This document shows positions 4,812 to 32,023 of a stretch of DNA of 64,000 bases, one piece after another. A program made the position numbers and the translations under genes. The notes beneath the pieces are model-generated. The model had not been told where the DNA came from and made no database searches. It worked only from the letters and a program-made list of their open reading frames with translations. The DNA comes from a virus: positions 32,001 to 96,000 of IMG/VR virus record IMGVR_UViG_3300021962_000035; one strand, 5' to 3'. The first letter of the stretch is position 1; each line of letters begins with the position of its first letter.

Positions 4812-5336
4812 ATGAATGACAGCTGGAGGAGAATAATCATAGCAGGTAAAGGTGGTTCGGGGAAGGATCACCTAGTTAAGCAATTGAGGGTGGAAGGCTT
4901 AATCTATTCGGTCTCTCACACATCCAGACCCCCGAGAGAAGGAGAATTCAATGGCGTTGATTATTACTTCGTTACTTACGAAGAAGCCATTGAAAGAGCC
5001 AACGGGGGAGATTTTTATGAATGGGTAGAATTTAACAAGTGGTTCTATGGAACATCTATGGATGAATTCTATAGAGCAAATCTTTTTATCATGACACCCA
5101 CAGGAATATCAAAACTAAAACCAGAGGACAGAAAAGAATCCTTTATAATATTCATCGATATTGACGAAAGCATTTTAAGGGAAAGATTAATGGGGAGAAG
5201 AGATGCAGACAAAGCGGAAAGAAGAATTGAAGCTGATAGAGAAGATTTTAAAAACTTTTCTGATTTTGACTGTATAATAACAAACCCCAATTTTACAGTA
5301 AACGAGGTAATGGAAAAAATAAGAAGAAATGATTAA
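4812..5336 (+). CDS. gmk: Guanylate kinase
   Basis: GKGGSGKD P-loop; SVSHTSRPPREGEFNGVDYYFV and FYEWVEF...YGTS GMP-binding signature. Confidence 0.9.
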   Translation: MNDSWRRIIIAGKGGSGKDHLVKQLRVEGLIYSVSHTSRPPREGEFNGVDYYFVTYEEAIERANGGDFYEWVEFNKWFYGTSMDEFYRANLFIMTPTGISKLKPEDRKESFIIFIDIDESILRERLMGRRDADKAERRIEADREDFKNFSDFDCIITNPNFTVNEVMEKIRRND

Positions 5337-9733: not shown

Positions 9734-10540
9734 GTGGGTTCAGTTTTATCTTATAAAAAATTTATTAATGCTTCACCTATCCTGGAGAGACAAGTAAACC
9801 CGTTCTATCACGACGAACTAAATCCTGTTTTCTGGACGAAGAAAATGAAGGGTGATGATGTTGAATGGTTATTTGATCAGAGGGTAAGAAAAAAGCTCCT
9901 TAGAATAGCGGACGAATTCTTTGAAAAGTTTGAGGAGATTCTTAAACAAAAGGACATAGTAGATATCCAATTAACTGGATCTCTAGCAAACTTCAACTAC
10001 ACTAATCTATCTGACCTTGATGTCCATGTTATCGTCAACCTCGAAGGTATAGATGACGAAAATCCCAAGATACTTAAGACCGCACTAGACGGTATAAGAT
10101 TTATATGGAATCTAAGACACAACATATCAATCAGGGGATATGACGTGGAGCTATATGTGCAGGACGCAAAAGAGCCTCACGTAGCTTCTGGCCTGTTCTC
10201 CCTAATGAATAACGAATGGATAAAGAATCCTGTATTCGATCCGCCAGAGATAGATGAGATGGACGTGAACAAGAAGACAGATGCTATGGCATATGAAATA
10301 GAACAGCTCCACACGAGATTGATTGCTTCTACCGCACTTCCTCATAATGCCAAAGAGCTATATAATAGAGGTATGAAGTTAAAGGAGAAAATCATGAAGA
10401 TGAGGAAAGAGGGACTTGCAAAGGAGGGTGAATTCTCAATCGGTAATTTGGCATTTAAAAAGCTCAGAAATGAAGGATATATAGAGAAATTGATAGACCT
10501 GACTTCAGAGGCTTACGATAAAATCTACAACGAAAAATAG
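9734..10540 (+). CDS. Pol-beta superfamily nucleotidyltransferase
   Basis: LTGSLANFNYTNLSDLDVHV (GS...DxD), GYDVELYVQD, C-terminal helical GEFSIGNLAFKKLR. Start moved to GTG9734, downstream of the promoter motif. Confidence 0.85.
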   Translation: MGSVLSYKKFINASPILERQVNPFYHDELNPVFWTKKMKGDDVEWLFDQRVRKKLLRIADEFFEKFEEILKQKDIVDIQLTGSLANFNYTNLSDLDVHVIVNLEGIDDENPKILKTALDGIRFIWNLRHNISIRGYDVELYVQDAKEPHVASGLFSLMNNEWIKNPVFDPPEIDEMDVNKKTDAMAYEIEQLHTRLIASTALPHNAKELYNRGMKLKEKIMKMRKEGLAKEGEFSIGNLAFKKLRNEGYIEKLIDLTSEAYDKIYNEK

Positions 10541-19453: not shown

Positions 19454-21940
19454 ATGAATAACAATCCATACATTTACAATCCGGTAGCGAAGACCTTATT
19501 AGAGGAATATCACACAAGACTTTTAGAAAATGAGCAGGTTGATTCTTTGCTTGTTAAAGTCTGCGATAATGCTTTAAATGCTTTTAAGATATTAACATTC
19601 GATTTAGCCCCAAAGAGAGATAGAAATCCTGATGTTATTAGACTTAAACTTTCAGATGTTGCAGATTCTAAAACTGTAAAATCATTAACCGCAAAATTAA
19701 TAGATTATGCGGATGACAATGATTTGCTGGATTCTAGATTTGCTGAAACGAAAAGACTTTATTTAGACAGTCTTAAAAAATTCTGTGAGGCTTTAGATAG
19801 AGCATCGGAGATTTCTAAGTCTAAGGATGATGTTGTATTTAAGCAGTTTAAATTGTCTGCTACTAAGCTTCAAAATTCCATAGATAATATAGCTAAGCAA
19901 GCAGAGGATGAAGCTAAAAAACTAAACGATAGTGAAGGATTTGAATATGGAGATACCTTAAATGAATCTATCTTTACCGGATATAAAAACAGGGTTGAGA
20001 ATCTTAGAAAAAATCTTACCAACCTAATTAGTTCGTCAGAAGGCAAGGATCAAAAATCTGGATACGGTAAAGACTGGAAAAGAATTTTTCTGGATTTCGA
20101 TGAGCAAAGAAAGATATTAGATAACACCGAAGGTGGGGATAGAAATAGAAAGTCTTTAGAGGATCTCGAAAAAAAGGTAGAGAAAGCTCAGGAAGAATTC
20201 TATAATTCTATGATCCAAACAGCAAATAGAACTTTACAGAAGTTAGAAGATGACGAGGAAGTTTACACAACTTACTCGGACGTTACTAATTTGGTTAACC
20301 AAGCATTGGATCTAATGACTAGAGCTAAGACACAATACGGATTAGCTGTTAGAATAATAAAAGACGAAAACGAAGCAAAAGAAGTCGAAACAGCTAAGGC
20401 AGTATTTCCTCTTAAAAGAGGAGACACCGATTCTGACAGAAAGATTAAAGGAAGTGGATTGATCTTTGCCATCCAAACCGCTCTTTGTAATGGTATACCT
20501 TCGGCTGGTAAATTGATAAAATCTAAAGGAGGTCCAAATGGTAAATACGGTCCAGCAACGACTTCCGTTATTGCTACTATTCAAAAGTTAAGCGGCAATA
20601 AGAACGCTAATGGACAAATAGATCAAACTCTTTTAAAAGATATCATTTCTTCTGATTGGGTTTCCGCTAAGGATAAAAAAGCAATACAAACGGCTTTAAA
20701 TACTATAGGATCTAAAATGAACGAAAGCGTTTTCGCTTCCGGCCACGTGAAGAGTATATCTGAAATGTTTTCCCCTGTTTATGAAGGAAAAATCGTTATA
20801 AACAATTCTGAATTTGAAAAAGAACTACAAGTTCAGTATAAGGCAAATTCAGTTATTTCTCATTCTTCAGGCAAGGAAGGTGAATCATCTCATTCAGGGG
20901 GAAAATCTTCTTCAGGAGTTCGCTCTTTAGCTAAAAAGCTTAGACAGAATTATAATATAAAGGTGGAGTCTGACGATTTCGTTAAACAGGACGGATCTCT
21001 TAAATCTTCTTATAATACAGAATTCATAAAAGATTGGAATGCAGCTTTAGATAAAGCGAGTCCTGCTGAGGAATTCTCTTACTTCTTTGCAAATGGAGCA
21101 GTTTATAACATCAATCTAGCTTCGTCTTCTTTAAAAACTCCTTGTAACTGGACTAAGTGGGCAGAGACCAGACAGATTAAAACATTGGGTAATGAAGATG
21201 CAACCGAATTCCTTAGAAACTATCTTAAAGGCTGGACAACTTTTGGTATGATCCGACCTGAATGGAGATACGAAGGGATTAAGTCATTGCTTAAAAAGAA
21301 TTCTAATAATAACAGTTTGGATTTACATGGTCCTTTCGAAATGATGGAATCTTCTATAAAGAACAAAGAGATCCCTTTTGTTGATTATGACAATCTTAAG
21401 GGTGATATAGCTAGAGCATTTAATATAGCTCTACAAAAAAGCGATAAGAGACCTGATTTAGGTAAAGAGGAATTCGTTGCAATCAACAATTTCCTTATAA
21501 TGATAGCTAACTGTGTTACTTTCGACGGAAGTAAATTCATAAGCTGTATAAAATGGATCAACGATAACGTTTTAGGAGCTTCTACAGCTAAGAGAATCAC
21601 GGAAGATCAAGTATTCTTTGAAAATGGTCTTAATGATTCGACTGGACAAATTTTAACTTACGAAGGATCAAAAATCATCTCTGGTGATTATGATGCCATC
21701 AAGAGAAGAAAAACCACATCGAAAAGGCAGATGTCTTCTGCACTTGACGGAATAGGTATTCTCGCTGGAATGAGAGGATCTGGAAGTGACACAAAAATAA
21801 TCCTAGGTAACAATTGCTATTATATAGCTGCTGATGTATATCCTAGCATAGCAACACACGTTAAGAGGATGAATGCTACGGAATTTGGCGATGTGCCTCA
21901 ACAAGCACCTTTTAAATGCGTCAACACAGACACTAAATAA
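19454..21940 (+). CDS. Large helical protein with a central peptidoglycan-binding (PG_binding_1-like) domain
   Basis: PLKRGD...IFAIQTAL...NGKYGPATTSVIATIQKLSG...NGQID (about 20405-20636); LNES/MNES sites. Confidence 0.65.
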   Translation: MNNNPYIYNPVAKTLLEEYHTRLLENEQVDSLLVKVCDNALNAFKILTFDLAPKRDRNPDVIRLKLSDVADSKTVKSLTAKLIDYADDNDLLDSRFAETKRLYLDSLKKFCEALDRASEISKSKDDVVFKQFKLSATKLQNSIDNIAKQAEDEAKKLNDSEGFEYGDTLNESIFTGYKNRVENLRKNLTNLISSSEGKDQKSGYGKDWKRIFLDFDEQRKILDNTEGGDRNRKSLEDLEKKVEKAQEEFYNSMIQTANRTLQKLEDDEEVYTTYSDVTNLVNQALDLMTRAKTQYGLAVRIIKDENEAKEVETAKAVFPLKRGDTDSDRKIKGSGLIFAIQTALCNGIPSAGKLIKSKGGPNGKYGPATTSVIATIQKLSGNKNANGQIDQTLLKDIISSDWVSAKDKKAIQTALNTIGSKMNESVFASGHVKSISEMFSPVYEGKIVINNSEFEKELQVQYKANSVISHSSGKEGESSHSGGKSSSGVRSLAKKLRQNYNIKVESDDFVKQDGSLKSSYNTEFIKDWNAALDKASPAEEFSYFFANGAVYNINLASSSLKTPCNWTKWAETRQIKTLGNEDATEFLRNYLKGWTTFGMIRPEWRYEGIKSLLKKNSNNNSLDLHGPFEMMESSIKNKEIPFVDYDNLKGDIARAFNIALQKSDKRPDLGKEEFVAINNFLIMIANCVTFDGSKFISCIKWINDNVLGASTAKRITEDQVFFENGLNDSTGQILTYEGSKIISGDYDAIKRRKTTSKRQMSSALDGIGILAGMRGSGSDTKIILGNNCYYIAADVYPSIATHVKRMNATEFGDVPQQAPFKCVNTDTK

Positions 21941-21941
21941 T

Positions 21942-21974
21942 AAAAACCCCGATCTAAAAAAGACCGGGGTTTTT
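21942..21974. terminator. Rho-independent terminator (A-tract/T-tract, potentially bidirectional)
   Basis: AAAAACCCCGATCT-AAAAA-AGACCGGGGTTTTT with one mismatch. Confidence 0.85.
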
Positions 21975-21998
21975 CGTGATTTCCCCGTACTAATTTAT

Positions 21999-22006
21999 TA
22001 TATTTG
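21999..22006 (+). promoter_or_regulatory. Bacteroidota-type -7 element (TATATTTG)
   Basis: TAnnTTTG(C) right after the terminator, upstream of ATG22049. Confidence 0.65.
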
Positions 22007-22048
22007 CTAAGTGGAACATGTATTGTGTTCCGCTATAGAAAGAAATAT

Positions 22049-22609
22049 ATGGTATACGTATTCGAAGGCCCCAGAAATTCAGGCAAGACATTTTTATCCG
22101 GGTTCGTCTCGGACTCCTTTAATATACCGAGATTCCAGTTTAAATTTGCAAACTTTTTTAAAGATCTAAATTTAAAAAGTGTGGATAGCAAGGAAGCACA
22201 TGCATTCTCTCTAGGAAAAGAGTTTATGCTTATGCAGCTGGCTAAGGATCTTGAACATGAGTCTTTTATTCACGACAGAGGAATATTGACAGTTTTGGTT
22301 TGGGGATTACTTGAGGGTAGAATCACGGAAGATGAAGCTAGAGATCAGATAGAAATATTGAAGAAGTATTCTTTGTTGGATCAAATAACAATAATCTACA
22401 TTCAGGGCAATAACCCAGATAAGTCTGATAGAGATAAGGATCAATGGGATCATATCGATGGTGATCCTAGAGAAAGAGAAACCTACGTAAAGGTGATATC
22501 AATGTTCCAAGAAGCTGGTCTCGATAGAATATGGGTATTTATAAACGGATTTGATGATCAATCAGTGAGCAACATGGGTTCAATGTTTGAAGATATACTT
22601 TTTAATTAA
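22049..22609 (+). CDS. P-loop nucleoside-monophosphate kinase (thymidylate/dNMP kinase-like)
   Basis: MVYVFEGPRNSGKT P-loop and FIHDRG (DR motif). Start moved to ATG22049. Confidence 0.75.
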   Translation: MVYVFEGPRNSGKTFLSGFVSDSFNIPRFQFKFANFFKDLNLKSVDSKEAHAFSLGKEFMLMQLAKDLEHESFIHDRGILTVLVWGLLEGRITEDEARDQIEILKKYSLLDQITIIYIQGNNPDKSDRDKDQWDHIDGDPRERETYVKVISMFQEAGLDRIWVFINGFDDQSVSNMGSMFEDILFN

Positions 22610-22613
22610 AAAT

Positions 22614-24017
22614 ATGTGCGGAATATTATTAACAACTAGGGCAGAAAAAAATCCCAACATTTTAGACACGATAAAGCATAGAGGTATAGAGAGATCTATT
22701 GGAGAACTTGATAACGTTACCCTTTGTCATCATAGGCTACCTATTCAAACTTTAGATGGTGATGACTGGAATCAGCCAAGAGAGATATCTCCTGGAGTTT
22801 ATTTAATGTTCAATGGCGAGATTTTTAACTATGATCAGAACCTATATACTTCTGACACCGAATACTTGTGTAGCTTATTCTCCGGGTACAAAGGAGGTAA
22901 TTTAGAATTCTTTGCTGCCACATATACACCGCACATTCAAACTTGGGATGGATTTTGGGCTATAGTTATCTATGACTCCAATAACGGTAACGTTATCGCA
23001 TTTACCGATCCTTTGGGTAAGAAATGTCTGTATAAAAACGATCTAGGCGAAATCTGCTCTGAAATTAAAGGCCTTTACGGTCCTTTGGACGAGGTTGACG
23101 AAGCTTATATAAGCTCCGTTAGAAAATGGGGTTACAATAAAGATAATAGAACTCCGGTGAAAACAATCAAAAGGATTCTACCTAACATTTTATACTCCTA
23201 CAATATAGCATCCCCACTATTTGATAAGACCTTTGGTCCTTATTATAGAACATGGGAATCTCCTATTCCCGAACTGATTGATGCTGATTATGAAACCCAC
23301 ATGGAGTGGCTTTGGGACAAGATGTTTGAAAGCGTAGGAAACAGACTGGTTTCCAAGAACTATCCAATATCTTTATTAATCTCAGGGGGCTTAGATTCTT
23401 CCATAATTGCTGGTGTTTTGAACGAGATGAAAGCTAAGGTTACTTGGTTCAGCATAGAGAATGGTGAAACCCCCTTTGTAAACGATTTAAGCGCCCATTT
23501 AAGCACTCCTGTTAATTTTCTAGAGTATGATATGGATTCTAGTAAAAATGCGCTTATATACAAGCTATGGAACGAAACACCGGTGGATTTAGGATCTGTT
23601 ATACCCCAATATCACCTTTTTGAAGCGGTAAAGAAAAATAGCGGTTATAGAATAGTCCTAAGTGGTGACGGATCGGATGAACTTTTCGGAGGATACTCAA
23701 GAATACACGACTATGATTCACAGCAATCTGATGTTTTCGAGGAGCTCACCTATTACCATCTTCCAAGACTCGATAAGATGTCTATGGCTCACACCCTAGA
23801 GCTAAGAAGTCCCTTCCTAAATTTAGATATAGTAAGATTTGCATTGCACCTCCCTATAGAGTGGAGAACAGATAAAAAGATCTTAAAAGATACCTTTGGA
23901 CCGATGCTTCCTGATTCTATAGTGAATCGTAAAAAAGAAGCCCTCAAAAATCCAGAAATAAAAGAGGATAAGCTTAAATACCGACAAAAAGCGGTAGACC
24001 TTTTTTTAGAGCCCTAG
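22614..24017 (+). CDS. asnB: Asparagine synthetase B-like glutamine amidotransferase
   Basis: Ntn N-terminus MCGI (ATG22614), HRG, HHRLPI, FNGEIFNY, SDTE, PP-loop SGGLDSS, SGDGSDELFGGY, SMAHTLELRSPFL. Confidence 0.9.
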   Translation: MCGILLTTRAEKNPNILDTIKHRGIERSIGELDNVTLCHHRLPIQTLDGDDWNQPREISPGVYLMFNGEIFNYDQNLYTSDTEYLCSLFSGYKGGNLEFFAATYTPHIQTWDGFWAIVIYDSNNGNVIAFTDPLGKKCLYKNDLGEICSEIKGLYGPLDEVDEAYISSVRKWGYNKDNRTPVKTIKRILPNILYSYNIASPLFDKTFGPYYRTWESPIPELIDADYETHMEWLWDKMFESVGNRLVSKNYPISLLISGGLDSSIIAGVLNEMKAKVTWFSIENGETPFVNDLSAHLSTPVNFLEYDMDSSKNALIYKLWNETPVDLGSVIPQYHLFEAVKKNSGYRIVLSGDGSDELFGGYSRIHDYDSQQSDVFEELTYYHLPRLDKMSMAHTLELRSPFLNLDIVRFALHLPIEWRTDKKILKDTFGPMLPDSIVNRKKEALKNPEIKEDKLKYRQKAVDLFLEP

Positions 24018-24043
24018 AAGCTTAGATTAATATTTTCTCCGTG

Positions 24044-24051
24044 GATATATA
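24044..24051 (+). promoter_or_regulatory. Late-promoter-like motif GATATATA
   Basis: 20 nt before ATG24072. Confidence 0.65.
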
Positions 24052-27645: not shown

Positions 27646-28290
27646 ATGGGGATATTTTCTTCATTATTTAAGAAAGATAAAAAAAAGAAAAAAATGGAAA
27701 TAAACGAACAAACAATAAATGATGCTCGTTCATATTACGGTGCACATGATTTTCAGTGGATTAAGGGGGATGACGCAGGAAATACTGAAATATTTAAAAA
27801 CATATCCCTGAATGGAGATATCTCATTTATTGAATTTAATAGCGGTAAAAGAATAAACACGGAACTTCTGGAAGAATTTATGATAATGCTTCCAGCCCAA
27901 CCAAAACCCGTTGAAATCCCTCAGCCTCAATATAATCCACCGGTTCAAACCCACCAGTCCACCGTTACCTCCATCATATATGACGATGCAAAAAATGCTC
28001 AAATTGATTCACCGATATATAAGTTACTGAAAAAGCAGAAAAAGAACATGGTCGAGGTTTCAATAAAGATAAAATTGAATCTTCCTCCTAAAGATCTTTA
28101 CACTGTTCTTTCTGGCTCTTTTGAGGATGCAGAAAAGGAAATAATAGATTTTGTTTTGGATGGAGTTGATATAGAGAATATAAAAGCATCTCTATCCGAT
28201 TCTATCAAAAAATCTTATTACACTGACTCTAAACCGCAAGAGGGGGCAAAGAAAAGTACAAAACCACAAAAAGAAACCAATGAGCAATAA
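27646..28290 (+). CDS. Hypothetical protein
   Basis: 214-aa ORF, tightly packed in the operon. Confidence 0.7.
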   Translation: MGIFSSLFKKDKKKKKMEINEQTINDARSYYGAHDFQWIKGDDAGNTEIFKNISLNGDISFIEFNSGKRINTELLEEFMIMLPAQPKPVEIPQPQYNPPVQTHQSTVTSIIYDDAKNAQIDSPIYKLLKKQKKNMVEVSIKIKLNLPPKDLYTVLSGSFEDAEKEIIDFVLDGVDIENIKASLSDSIKKSYYTDSKPQEGAKKSTKPQKETNEQ

Positions 28291-28867
28291 CGAAGAAAAA
28301 ATATTGACATCCACCCCAAGATTTGATGTTATCGAAAGGGACGGAAAGGTTGGAATAAGATCCACTGTAGAATCTGTGATAATACTTCCCTTTGTCACAG
28401 ATGATCAAGGCTTACCTCTAATGCTAGGAGTTCTTAAAGAAAAGAACCCTTTCAGAGAAGGAGGATATTCGGTTAGCTTGATATCAGGTACGTCAGAGGA
28501 CGAGGATCCAGATTTTCTAGAGACTGCAAAAAGAGAACTAAAGGAGGAATCTGGATTTGATGTTGAAGACAGTTCTAAGTGGTATTTTCTAGGAACAGTA
28601 ACAGCTTCTAAAATGGTGGATGCCGAGCATCCGTGTTTTGCTGTAGATGTTACGGGAATAAATAAAGGTGAAGCGACAACTGATGGATCTGAACAGGAAA
28701 GACTTTCTGAATTTATTTTTATCCCTGCTAACGATGTGGTTAAAGCTAAGGATGTCTTTGTACCTGCAATATTTTTAAAACTTTTTAAATTTGTTGTTGG
28801 TATGGATCTTTATAATAGAGACGATTCGACTTTTGGTAAATCAAAAGGATTTAGCGTAGAGATTTAA
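28280..28867 (+). CDS. Nudix hydrolase (ADP-ribose pyrophosphatase-like)
   Basis: Nudix box SLISGTSEDEDPDFLETAKRELKEESGF; WYFLG; FAVDV. Confidence 0.85.
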   Translation: MSNNEEKILTSTPRFDVIERDGKVGIRSTVESVIILPFVTDDQGLPLMLGVLKEKNPFREGGYSVSLISGTSEDEDPDFLETAKRELKEESGFDVEDSSKWYFLGTVTASKMVDAEHPCFAVDVTGINKGEATTDGSEQERLSEFIFIPANDVVKAKDVFVPAIFLKLFKFVVGMDLYNRDDSTFGKSKGFSVEI

Positions 28868-31435: not shown

Positions 31436-32023
31436 ATGGCACTGGAAATAGATACACTGACCAATAATAAAAGAATATTCAATCCGGATAGCACTTTAAA
31501 TTCTACCGGTAGCTATGGAGTATGGGATCTCACTAAAGCTTCCATGACTTATAATAATGTCTCTGTACAGATAAAAACATTTTTTGCAGTAACTGAGTAC
31601 TATCAGATGAGACCTGATATCATAGCTGCTATTAAGCTGGGTGATCAAGGAATGGTTGGGTCCTTGTTAAAATTCAATAGCGTAAGTAATCCTTTTGCTG
31701 TCAAGGAAGGCACTGTCTTTGCAATACCTGAATCATCAACTGTACAGGAGAGCTTTAGAACAAAACAAATTAAAGATCAAACGGCCGTTAGTTCGAATAC
31801 GAACACAAATCCAAATAACGTGTTTAAGAAAAACCAAGAACAGAAAAAATTCAAGGTTAGCGAGGGTAGGAAAAAATATTTGCAGGACAAAGTAAAAAAT
31901 AAGCCTGCAATGGATTTACCGCCTAATGTTCTTCAACCAGGGGAGAAAGTAATAGATAAAAAGAACGGATTCTTCATATTTGCACCTGATGCAGGTGGAG
32001 GAGGATTCAATACACCTCAGTAA
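31436..32023 (+). CDS. Baseplate wedge protein (gp53/LysM-like)
   Basis: RPDIIAAIKLG...LLKFNSVSNPFAVKEGTVFAIP. Confidence 0.7.
   Translation: MALEIDTLTNNKRIFNPDSTLNSTGSYGVWDLTKASMTYNNVSVQIKTFFAVTEYYQMRPDIIAAIKLGDQGMVGSLLKFNSVSNPFAVKEGTVFAIPESSTVQESFRTKQIKDQTAVSSNTNTNPNNVFKKNQEQKKFKVSEGRKKYLQDKVKNKPAMDLPPNVLQPGEKVIDKKNGFFIFAPDAGGGGFNTPQ

Follow-up and report, generated by a model that had tools for sequence, protein, structure and literature searches.

Phage T4 converts deoxycytidine (dC) to 5-hydroxymethyldeoxycytidine (hmdC) by a pathway made up of the deoxycytidine monophosphate (dCMP) hydroxymethylase gp42, the deoxynucleoside monophosphate (dNMP) kinase gp1, the dCTPase gp56, and the cd deaminase. 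In Synechococcus phage S-B43, CmoA and CmoX make 5-carboxymethylcytosine in DNA (Yang et al. 2025, PMC12783734). CmoY, an AsnB homologue without a glutaminase domain, ligates glycine to 5-carboxymethylcytosine, and a glutamine-using CmoY variant was predicted by the same authors but could not be tested (PMC12783734). In this study, we analysed a 64,000-nucleotide (nt) window of DNA from a giant lake-type phage, comprising positions 32001–96000 of a 121.8-kb contig (IMG/VR record IMGVR_UViG_3300021962_000035), and focused on a two-gene cassette coding for a kinase and an AsnB-like amidotransferase; unless stated otherwise, coordinates are those of the window. The original prediction had proposed that this pair might amidate or aminate a dNMP and then phosphorylate it. 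Our analysis suggests that the cassette is probably the kinase and amidotransferase half of a pre-replicative cytosine-modification pathway for phage DNA. Because the AsnB-like gene travels with a divergent thymidylate synthase (TS) homologue of the cytosine type, hereafter called TS-like, in every genome checked, the unit probably helps to build a modified cytosine, of a kind not yet described, rather than asparagine.

The TS-like family was found in all of the 30 AsnB-like-carrying records that we examined, 18 of which are at least 90% complete. The relationship also holds in the opposite direction. A search from the TS-like protein, in which a narrowed alignment was used, gave 572 viral contigs. 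Of the 80 best loci, 78 have the AsnB-like gene downstream of TS-like, usually in an overlapping or abutting frame, and the remaining two end within 200 nt. Linkage to TS-like genes, which had been put forward as a check on the predicted pathway, is thus strongly positive. The two genes are far apart in five jumbo genomes, two of which have about 100 kb between them. With the TS-like profile, matches were obtained to thymidylate synthases, the CMP hydroxymethylase MilA, and the dCMP hydroxymethylase of T4. On our reading of the TS-like consensus, numbered after Escherichia coli ThyA, the catalytic Cys (RVPC) and D169 are retained, whereas N177 is replaced by an invariant Asp and L143 by an invariant Arg. 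An Asp at N177 is the signature of cytosine-type enzymes (PMC13326640), and together with the catalytic Cys it places the TS-like family in this class. Since an ordinary TS (273–325 bits) and a dCMP deaminase are likewise encoded in the jumbo genomes, the TS-like gene is an extra one and not the source of dTMP. No description of the TS-like and AsnB-like pair was found in the literature.

Some peculiarities of the TS genes in jumbo relatives were observed. In a 430-kb relative (the record of L027), the open frame of the TS-like gene has 637 aa (G003:C1:396502-398406), and the profile match within it falls into two parts (positions 1–167 and 165–242) with about 1.1 kb between them, suggestive of an intein or another in-frame insertion. 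The ordinary TS of four jumbo relatives (L255–L258) lies in frames of 407–434 aa, far longer than a usual TS, and the Pfam TS match is broken near the C-terminal part in three of the four, so that a fusion or an insertion is possible. In a 348-kb relative, a calcineurin-like phosphoesterase gene (L344:8740-9396) is directly upstream of the TS-like gene (L344:7905-8690), and a RimK-like ATP-grasp ligase of 485 aa (L344:13081-14535, minus strand) is about 4.4 kb away. Among the neighbours of the TS-like gene in a jumbo relative (phosphoesterase, RNase HII, SLT, and RimK-like ligase), there was no clear further pathway gene.

The AsnB-like gene (22614–24017, plus strand) is an open reading frame (ORF) for a protein of 467 aa that starts with MCG. 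The protein matches the Pfam model Asn_synthase (PF00733; 6e-40, above the cut-off) as well as GATase_6/7, and it has the two domains of the AsnB fold, i.e., an N-terminal nucleophile (Ntn) glutaminase and a PP-loop adenylating domain. Its AlphaFold2 model (predicted local distance difference test score [pLDDT] 96.4) gave Foldseek template modelling (TM) scores of 0.76 to human ASNS (6gq3) and 0.75 to E. coli AsnB (1ct9). The score against the asparagine-synthase equivalog TIGR01536 is 206.1 bits, below the cut-off of 267.1, and that against NF006949 is 142.6 bits, with a cut-off of 499. For a comparison of the acceptor site, we aligned E. coli AsnB (1ct9) with a profile built from 63 members of the subfamily. 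The glutaminase residues Cys1 and the equivalents of R49 (HRL), N74-G75-E76 (NGE), and D98 are retained; they line up with those of human ASNS and of the E. coli enzyme, with conservation across the subfamily. The PP-loop S257-G-G-L-D-S262 and K441 (the equivalent of K449, the lysine by which the phosphate of the adenylate is held) are invariant or nearly so in the 63 sequences, and the equivalents of D351, E352, and R387 are also retained. Thus, the phage enzyme has the two-domain fold, the Cys1 glutaminase, the SGGLDS motif, and the K449, D351, and E352 equivalents in common with AsnB and human ASNS.

The residues linked to the use of aspartate and to the formation of beta-aspartyl-AMP (T322, T323, R325, E348, D384, and C523) present a different picture. 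In the subfamily, T322/T323 are replaced by an invariant G/S, R325 is deleted, and an invariant His stands in place of D384. About 100 aa are missing from the C-terminus, including the C523 region, the protein stopping about 25 residues past the K449 equivalent. E348 is replaced by D, giving the motif SGDGSDE where AsnB has SGEGSDE, just as the original prediction had read it. T322, T323, R325, and C523 have been tied to how aspartate and ATP are bound (PMC5775275), and the equivalents of E348, D351, E352, D384, and R387 were placed around the aspartyl amino group (PMC6748925). Taken together, the retained and the altered residues indicate that the machinery for adenylation and ammonia transfer is intact and that the acceptor site has been remodelled. 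The loss of residues linked to aspartate use, the score below the equivalog cut-off, and the virus-only range described below support the view, already taken in the original prediction, that this is not an ordinary asparagine synthetase.

A full HMMER scan for the AsnB-like subfamily revealed 208 representative clusters at E<1e-30, and among the matches listed most proteins were about 420–480 aa in length. A pattern scan detected the subfamily in 456 viral contigs. Among prokaryotes (185,579 species, one genome each), only a single match above 30% identity was found, on a 75-kb contig binned as 'Myxococcaceae' that equals the viral locus L101 in size, coordinates, and score. This contig (L175; RPRB01000006.1, 75,335 bp), from the metagenome bin 'Myxococcaceae bacterium', has its IMG/VR counterpart in L101, and direct terminal repeats are present in the underlying record; very probably, the contig is a phage genome that was mis-binned into a bacterial metagenome-assembled genome. 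The clusters nearest to the AsnB-like protein in a protein atlas are also viral. The subfamily is therefore confined to viruses.

The kinase gene (22049–22609, plus strand), an ORF with an ATG start, codes for 186 aa. No Pfam or NCBIfam model scored above its threshold against the protein, that of thymidylate kinase (TMPK; PF02223) included, and the best sub-threshold matches were AAA_14 (E 0.048) and phrog_761, 'thymidylate kinase' (E 0.005). Nevertheless, the AlphaFold2 model built with 45 homologues (pLDDT 92.7) has as its top fold match the TMPK of Staphylococcus aureus (4dwj), with Z 14.8 and a root mean square deviation of 3.1 Å over 170 residues. It also matches human deoxyguanosine kinase and vaccinia TMPK (Z 14.2 each), deoxyadenosine kinase, the kinase domain of NadR, and YorR of SPbeta. 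The homologues have an invariant GxRNSGK P-loop (GPRNSGKT in the present protein) and a DRG motif, so that the TMPK fold is accompanied by the P-loop and DR motif expected of it. With TMPK, deoxynucleoside kinases (dNK), and YorR (4dwj, 2ocp, and 2axp), the protein shares the fold over its whole length, the P-loop Arg, and the DR(G) motif at the acceptor site, but the identity is only 12–16%, and the phage kinase has in addition a distinctive KDxWD segment that is conserved and invariant among its homologues. The model thus supports, at the level of fold, a nucleotide or nucleoside kinase of the TMPK/dNK type, and the protein is probably a kinase for a modified dNMP. Because no Pfam or NCBIfam model passes its threshold, the 'dNMP kinase' of the original prediction holds as a fold-level call only.

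In the jumbo clade, the kinase gene is directly 5′ of the AsnB-like gene in all 79 loci with upstream DNA, and the adjacency persists in the most distant branch despite different flanking genes. The AsnB-like protein is 51–89% identical across these loci, a degree of conservation exceeded only by the capsid protein. Some 60 distant loci had no kinase of the jumbo type within 7 kb. A second kinase family, of 170 aa, is located directly 5′ of the AsnB-like gene in 14 small-phage loci, several of which have the order TS-like, kinase, AsnB-like. This family carries an EGPDGSGKST P-loop and a DR motif, matches YorR (E 1.8e-12), and shows homology with the kinase of the jumbo clade (hhalign probability 96.6%, E 5e-10). 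In total, one or the other kinase family was present in 19 of the 30 records with the AsnB-like gene. The co-occurrence of the pair across phages, for which the original prediction had asked, is therefore complete in the jumbo loci but only partial when records (19/30) or complete genomes (12/18) are counted, and the kinase is a frequent but non-obligatory partner of the AsnB-like gene.

The neighbours of the approximately 60 distant loci were clustered, and representatives of the families were annotated with Pfam. The recurrent families include a weak TS match, dCMP deaminase, MazG-like and dUTPase_2 pyrophosphatases, ThyX, DUF1599 ('nucleotide modification associated domain 1'), and a protein with the fold of DNA methyltransferases (DNMT), as well as proteins of the replication type, namely SNF2 and DnaB helicases, UvsX, and DNA polymerase A. 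One small-phage locus (L159) has the gene row kinase, MazG-like, AsnB-like, TS-like, DNMT-like, and deaminase. The DNMT-fold neighbours in small phages have HPEC or HTEC, not SPPC, as motif IV. In the proteins of L111:9017-10201, L159:9093-10280, and other loci, this reads G-H-P/T-E-C where PPC(Q) is usual. They also have a DNL motif, the usual form of which in DNMTs is ENV, and a Cys-rich C-terminal tail. Judged by these motifs, they look like an uncharacterised branch of the C5-pyrimidine DNA transferases.

How might the cassette work? By analogy with T4, the TS-like homologue would modify C5 of dCMP. The AsnB-like enzyme, using ATP, would then activate an oxygen function on the TS-like product, which glutamine-derived ammonia would replace, and the product would be a cytosine bearing an amide or an amine. 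The TMPK-like kinase would phosphorylate this unusual dNMP, which host kinases would refuse, and thereby allow it to enter replication. The aminating step could be the amidation of a carboxyl-bearing C5 substituent or, alternatively, the adenylation of a 5-hydroxymethyl group followed by its displacement by ammonia. The observations from which this scheme starts are the folds, the intact catalytic motifs, the loss of residues linked to aspartate use, the virus-only range, the co-occurrence with TS-like, and the non-late promoter context; from them we infer the substrate, the product, the order of the steps, and whether the AsnB-like enzyme acts on a nucleotide or on DNA. The dNMP amidation and phosphorylation of the original prediction has accordingly gained an insulated unit, a kinase fold, a non-ordinary AsnB, and a TS linkage, while its chemistry (a carboxy-base dNMP as the substrate, an amide as the product, and a kinase that acts after the amidotransferase) stays conjectural. 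A more specific possibility, to which we would give somewhat less than an even chance, is that the TS-like protein, the AsnB-like enzyme, and the kinase together make, at the nucleotide level, a cytosine derivative that has not been seen in any DNA, for example a deoxycytidine of the 5-aminomethyl or 5-carboxamide type.

Several points weigh against a pre-replicative cytosine-modification pathway. To our knowledge, all AsnB-family enzymes act on carboxylates. TS-family chemistry yields methyl, hydroxymethyl, or hydroxyl groups, so that the link from the TS step to the AsnB step is unexplained. In addition, most of the acidic pocket (D, D, and E) that binds the amino group of aspartate is preserved, and AsnB with the change E348D may keep its activity. 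Of the 18 complete genomes that have both the TS-like and the AsnB-like gene, 6 lack the kinase. The TS-like gene is not on the present contig, which is 44% complete (CheckV), so that its presence in this phage rests on the close relative L002. The subfamily was not found in any isolate phage of a collection of 50,697 records, and no modified base has been observed.

Three other explanations have to be weighed. The AsnB-like enzyme may act after replication, amidating or aminating a C5 substituent on DNA in the manner of CmoY, with the kinase serving only to feed the simpler TS-like product into DNA. There is precedent for this, as CmoY, itself an AsnB homologue, acts on 5-carboxymethylcytosine in double-stranded DNA, and Yang et al. 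refer to a cluster of untested ligases that have a glutaminase domain (PMC12783734); moreover, DNMT-fold genes are frequent neighbours in small phages. However, CmoA (TIGR00740) was absent from all 30 records, the 18 that are at least 90% complete included, no match to PF00145, the family of CmoX-type C5-methyltransferases, was present in five jumbo-clade records (this contig and four complete genomes), and the DNMT-fold neighbours carry HPEC/HTEC rather than the SPPC of CmoX. A step at the nucleotide level would be equally compatible with the frame overlap with a TS homologue of the mononucleotide type and with the early/middle timing. We consider a post-replicative role unlikely, and we continue to favour a pathway that builds the modified cytosine before replication.

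The remaining two explanations place the cassette outside DNA modification altogether. The pair could represent plain auxiliary metabolism, that is, a trimmed asparagine synthetase next to a phage thymidylate kinase, their adjacency being inherited gene order. The best fold and sequence matches of the AsnB-like protein are indeed true asparagine synthetases, it has an intact glutaminase site and PP-loop and keeps D351, E352, and K449, and the whole block is syntenic within the jumbo clade, because of which adjacency alone proves little. Yet the enzyme no longer has R325, T322/T323, or the C523 region, D384 is replaced by His, the score is under the equivalog cut-off, and the subfamily is virus-only; furthermore, the AsnB-like gene and the cytosine-type TS homologue are coupled in both directions, and the kinase pairing recurs in lineages of unrelated gene order, all of which makes this explanation very improbable. 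We attach the same small probability to the idea that the genes make a nucleotide-derived small molecule, such as an amidated pyrimidine or a nicotinamide-type nucleotide, for counter-defence or cofactor salvage. The kinase model does match the ribosylnicotinamide kinase domain of NadR (Z 13.6), and the TS-like profile matches MilA, an enzyme of antibiotic biosynthesis, but the constant neighbours are genes for DNA precursors and replication (dCMP deaminase, ThyX, MazG-like, DNA polymerase, and helicases), and no NAD-pathway gene was present among the recurrent neighbour families annotated. A pre-replicative route to a modified cytosine thus remains the explanation that we prefer.

The arrangement of the locus was as the original prediction had described it. 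The kinase and AsnB-like ORFs, both of which are real genes since they have many homologues, are separated by 4 nt (22610–22613). Upstream, an intrinsic terminator on the plus strand (21942–21974; hairpin and U-run, -16.2 kcal/mol, z -3.94 versus shuffles) closes a late gene for an 828-aa protein and forms the upstream boundary of the cassette; a hairpin with a T-run is found at the equivalent place in most relatives. The downstream boundary is a late-type promoter box, GGATATATA (24043–24051, plus strand), which belongs to the next gene. This over-represented motif occurs six times in the window against 1.19 expected, always on the plus strand (positions 10475, 17084, 24043, 25940, 38292, and 48675). 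The four copies whose upstream regions were inspected, that at 24043 included, sit just ahead of genes, a distribution consistent with a late promoter class.

Two candidate promoters of other types precede the kinase gene. A Bacteroidota-type -7 box, TAtaTTTG (21999–22006, plus strand), may be part of a host-type, early promoter; it lies within the 10-mer TTATATTTGC, an identical copy of which is found upstream of a ligase/clamp-loader operon. A TAtgTTTG box is located upstream of an ORF that overlaps a dCMP deaminase match (contig position 21608–21928), and many relatives have TAnnTTTG upstream of their kinase gene. The second candidate, GGAAC-N16-TATAG (22013–22038, plus strand), would be of the middle type; it resembles a GGAAC-N17-TATAA box elsewhere on the contig, and GAAAC/GGAAC-N~17-TATAA is found at the equivalent position in relatives down to about 40% kinase identity. 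Both box types recur 5′ of the kinase gene among relatives with kinase identities of only about 40–60%. A generic sigma-70 scan gave no promoter within 21975–22048, and in the window the strict TTTG-N17-21-TAnnTTTG pattern was at chance level and GAAC-N15-18-TATAR was likewise not enriched, so that the promoter calls rest on conservation across relatives. Given that early/middle-type boxes lie upstream and the late box stands only before the next gene, the cassette is a non-late unit within a late block, in agreement with the insulated unit with its own promoter that had been predicted.

The guanylate kinase gene (4812–5336) and the Nudix hydrolase gene (28280–28867; Pfam NUDIX, 29 bits) that had been noted in the window were both located. 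The latter is 4 kb 3′ of the cassette amid late genes and may code for a dNTP pyrophosphatase of this pathway or have no connection with it. The major capsid protein of the contig is 30–45% identical to those of Lak megaphages and of jumbo phages of Tenacibaculum, Flavobacterium, and Chryseobacterium. The complete relatives have genomes of 319–430 kb, and in L002 the kinase is 85% and the AsnB-like protein 88% identical to that of the present phage. DNA and protein searches of the 50,697 phage records with the cassette DNA, the kinase and AsnB-like proteins, a distant member of the subfamily, and one of the DNMT-like neighbours as queries revealed no close isolate.

The gene set is present in roughly 450–570 viral contigs from genomes of very different sizes and in no cultured phage searched; for this reason, a widespread DNA chemistry may have gone unseen. 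The cassette points to an AsnB-family enzyme that acts on a nucleotide. If the 5-aminomethyl or 5-carboxamide derivative suggested above is indeed made at the nucleotide level, its synthesis through adenylation and the transfer of ammonia would be a new type of reaction for the family, used by hundreds of uncultured phage lineages, including jumbo phages of Bacteroidota. Modified bases govern the survival of phage DNA against restriction enzymes and CRISPR as well as its sequencing and cloning, and they are a source of useful enzymes.

The proposed pathway has several parts in common with that of T4. A TS homologue of the cytosine type occurs alongside an ordinary TS, the P-loop nucleotide kinase is probably dedicated to the pathway, a dCMP deaminase is present, and there are candidate NTP pyrophosphatases; the pathway genes are expressed before the late genes, which is predicted on the side of the present phage. 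For the pyrophosphatase that destroys dCTP in T4, the Nudix gene and the MazG-like genes of small phages are candidates only. In contrast to T4, there is an ATP- and glutamine-dependent AsnB-like step, the kinase is TMPK/YorR-like, the TS-like protein carries an Arg at the position of L143 in E. coli ThyA, which is Asp/Glu in T4-type enzymes, and the pathway genes are scattered in the jumbo clade. With the CmoA/CmoX/CmoY system, the present one would share a phage AsnB-family adenylating enzyme that puts an amide on a C5 substituent of cytosine. However, SpCmoY lacks the glutaminase domain that the enzyme studied here possesses, and the AsnB-like gene is coupled to a TS homologue rather than to a carboxy-S-adenosylmethionine system. 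Membership of the CmoA/CmoX system was rejected on the absence of CmoA from the 30 records, of PF00145 from the five jumbo records, and of SPPC from the DNMT-fold neighbours. The system may therefore work like CmoY in principle without being a member of CmoA/CmoX/CmoY, and the gp56/gp42/gp1/cd pathway of T4 with one added ATP- and glutamine-dependent step appears to be the closer analogy.

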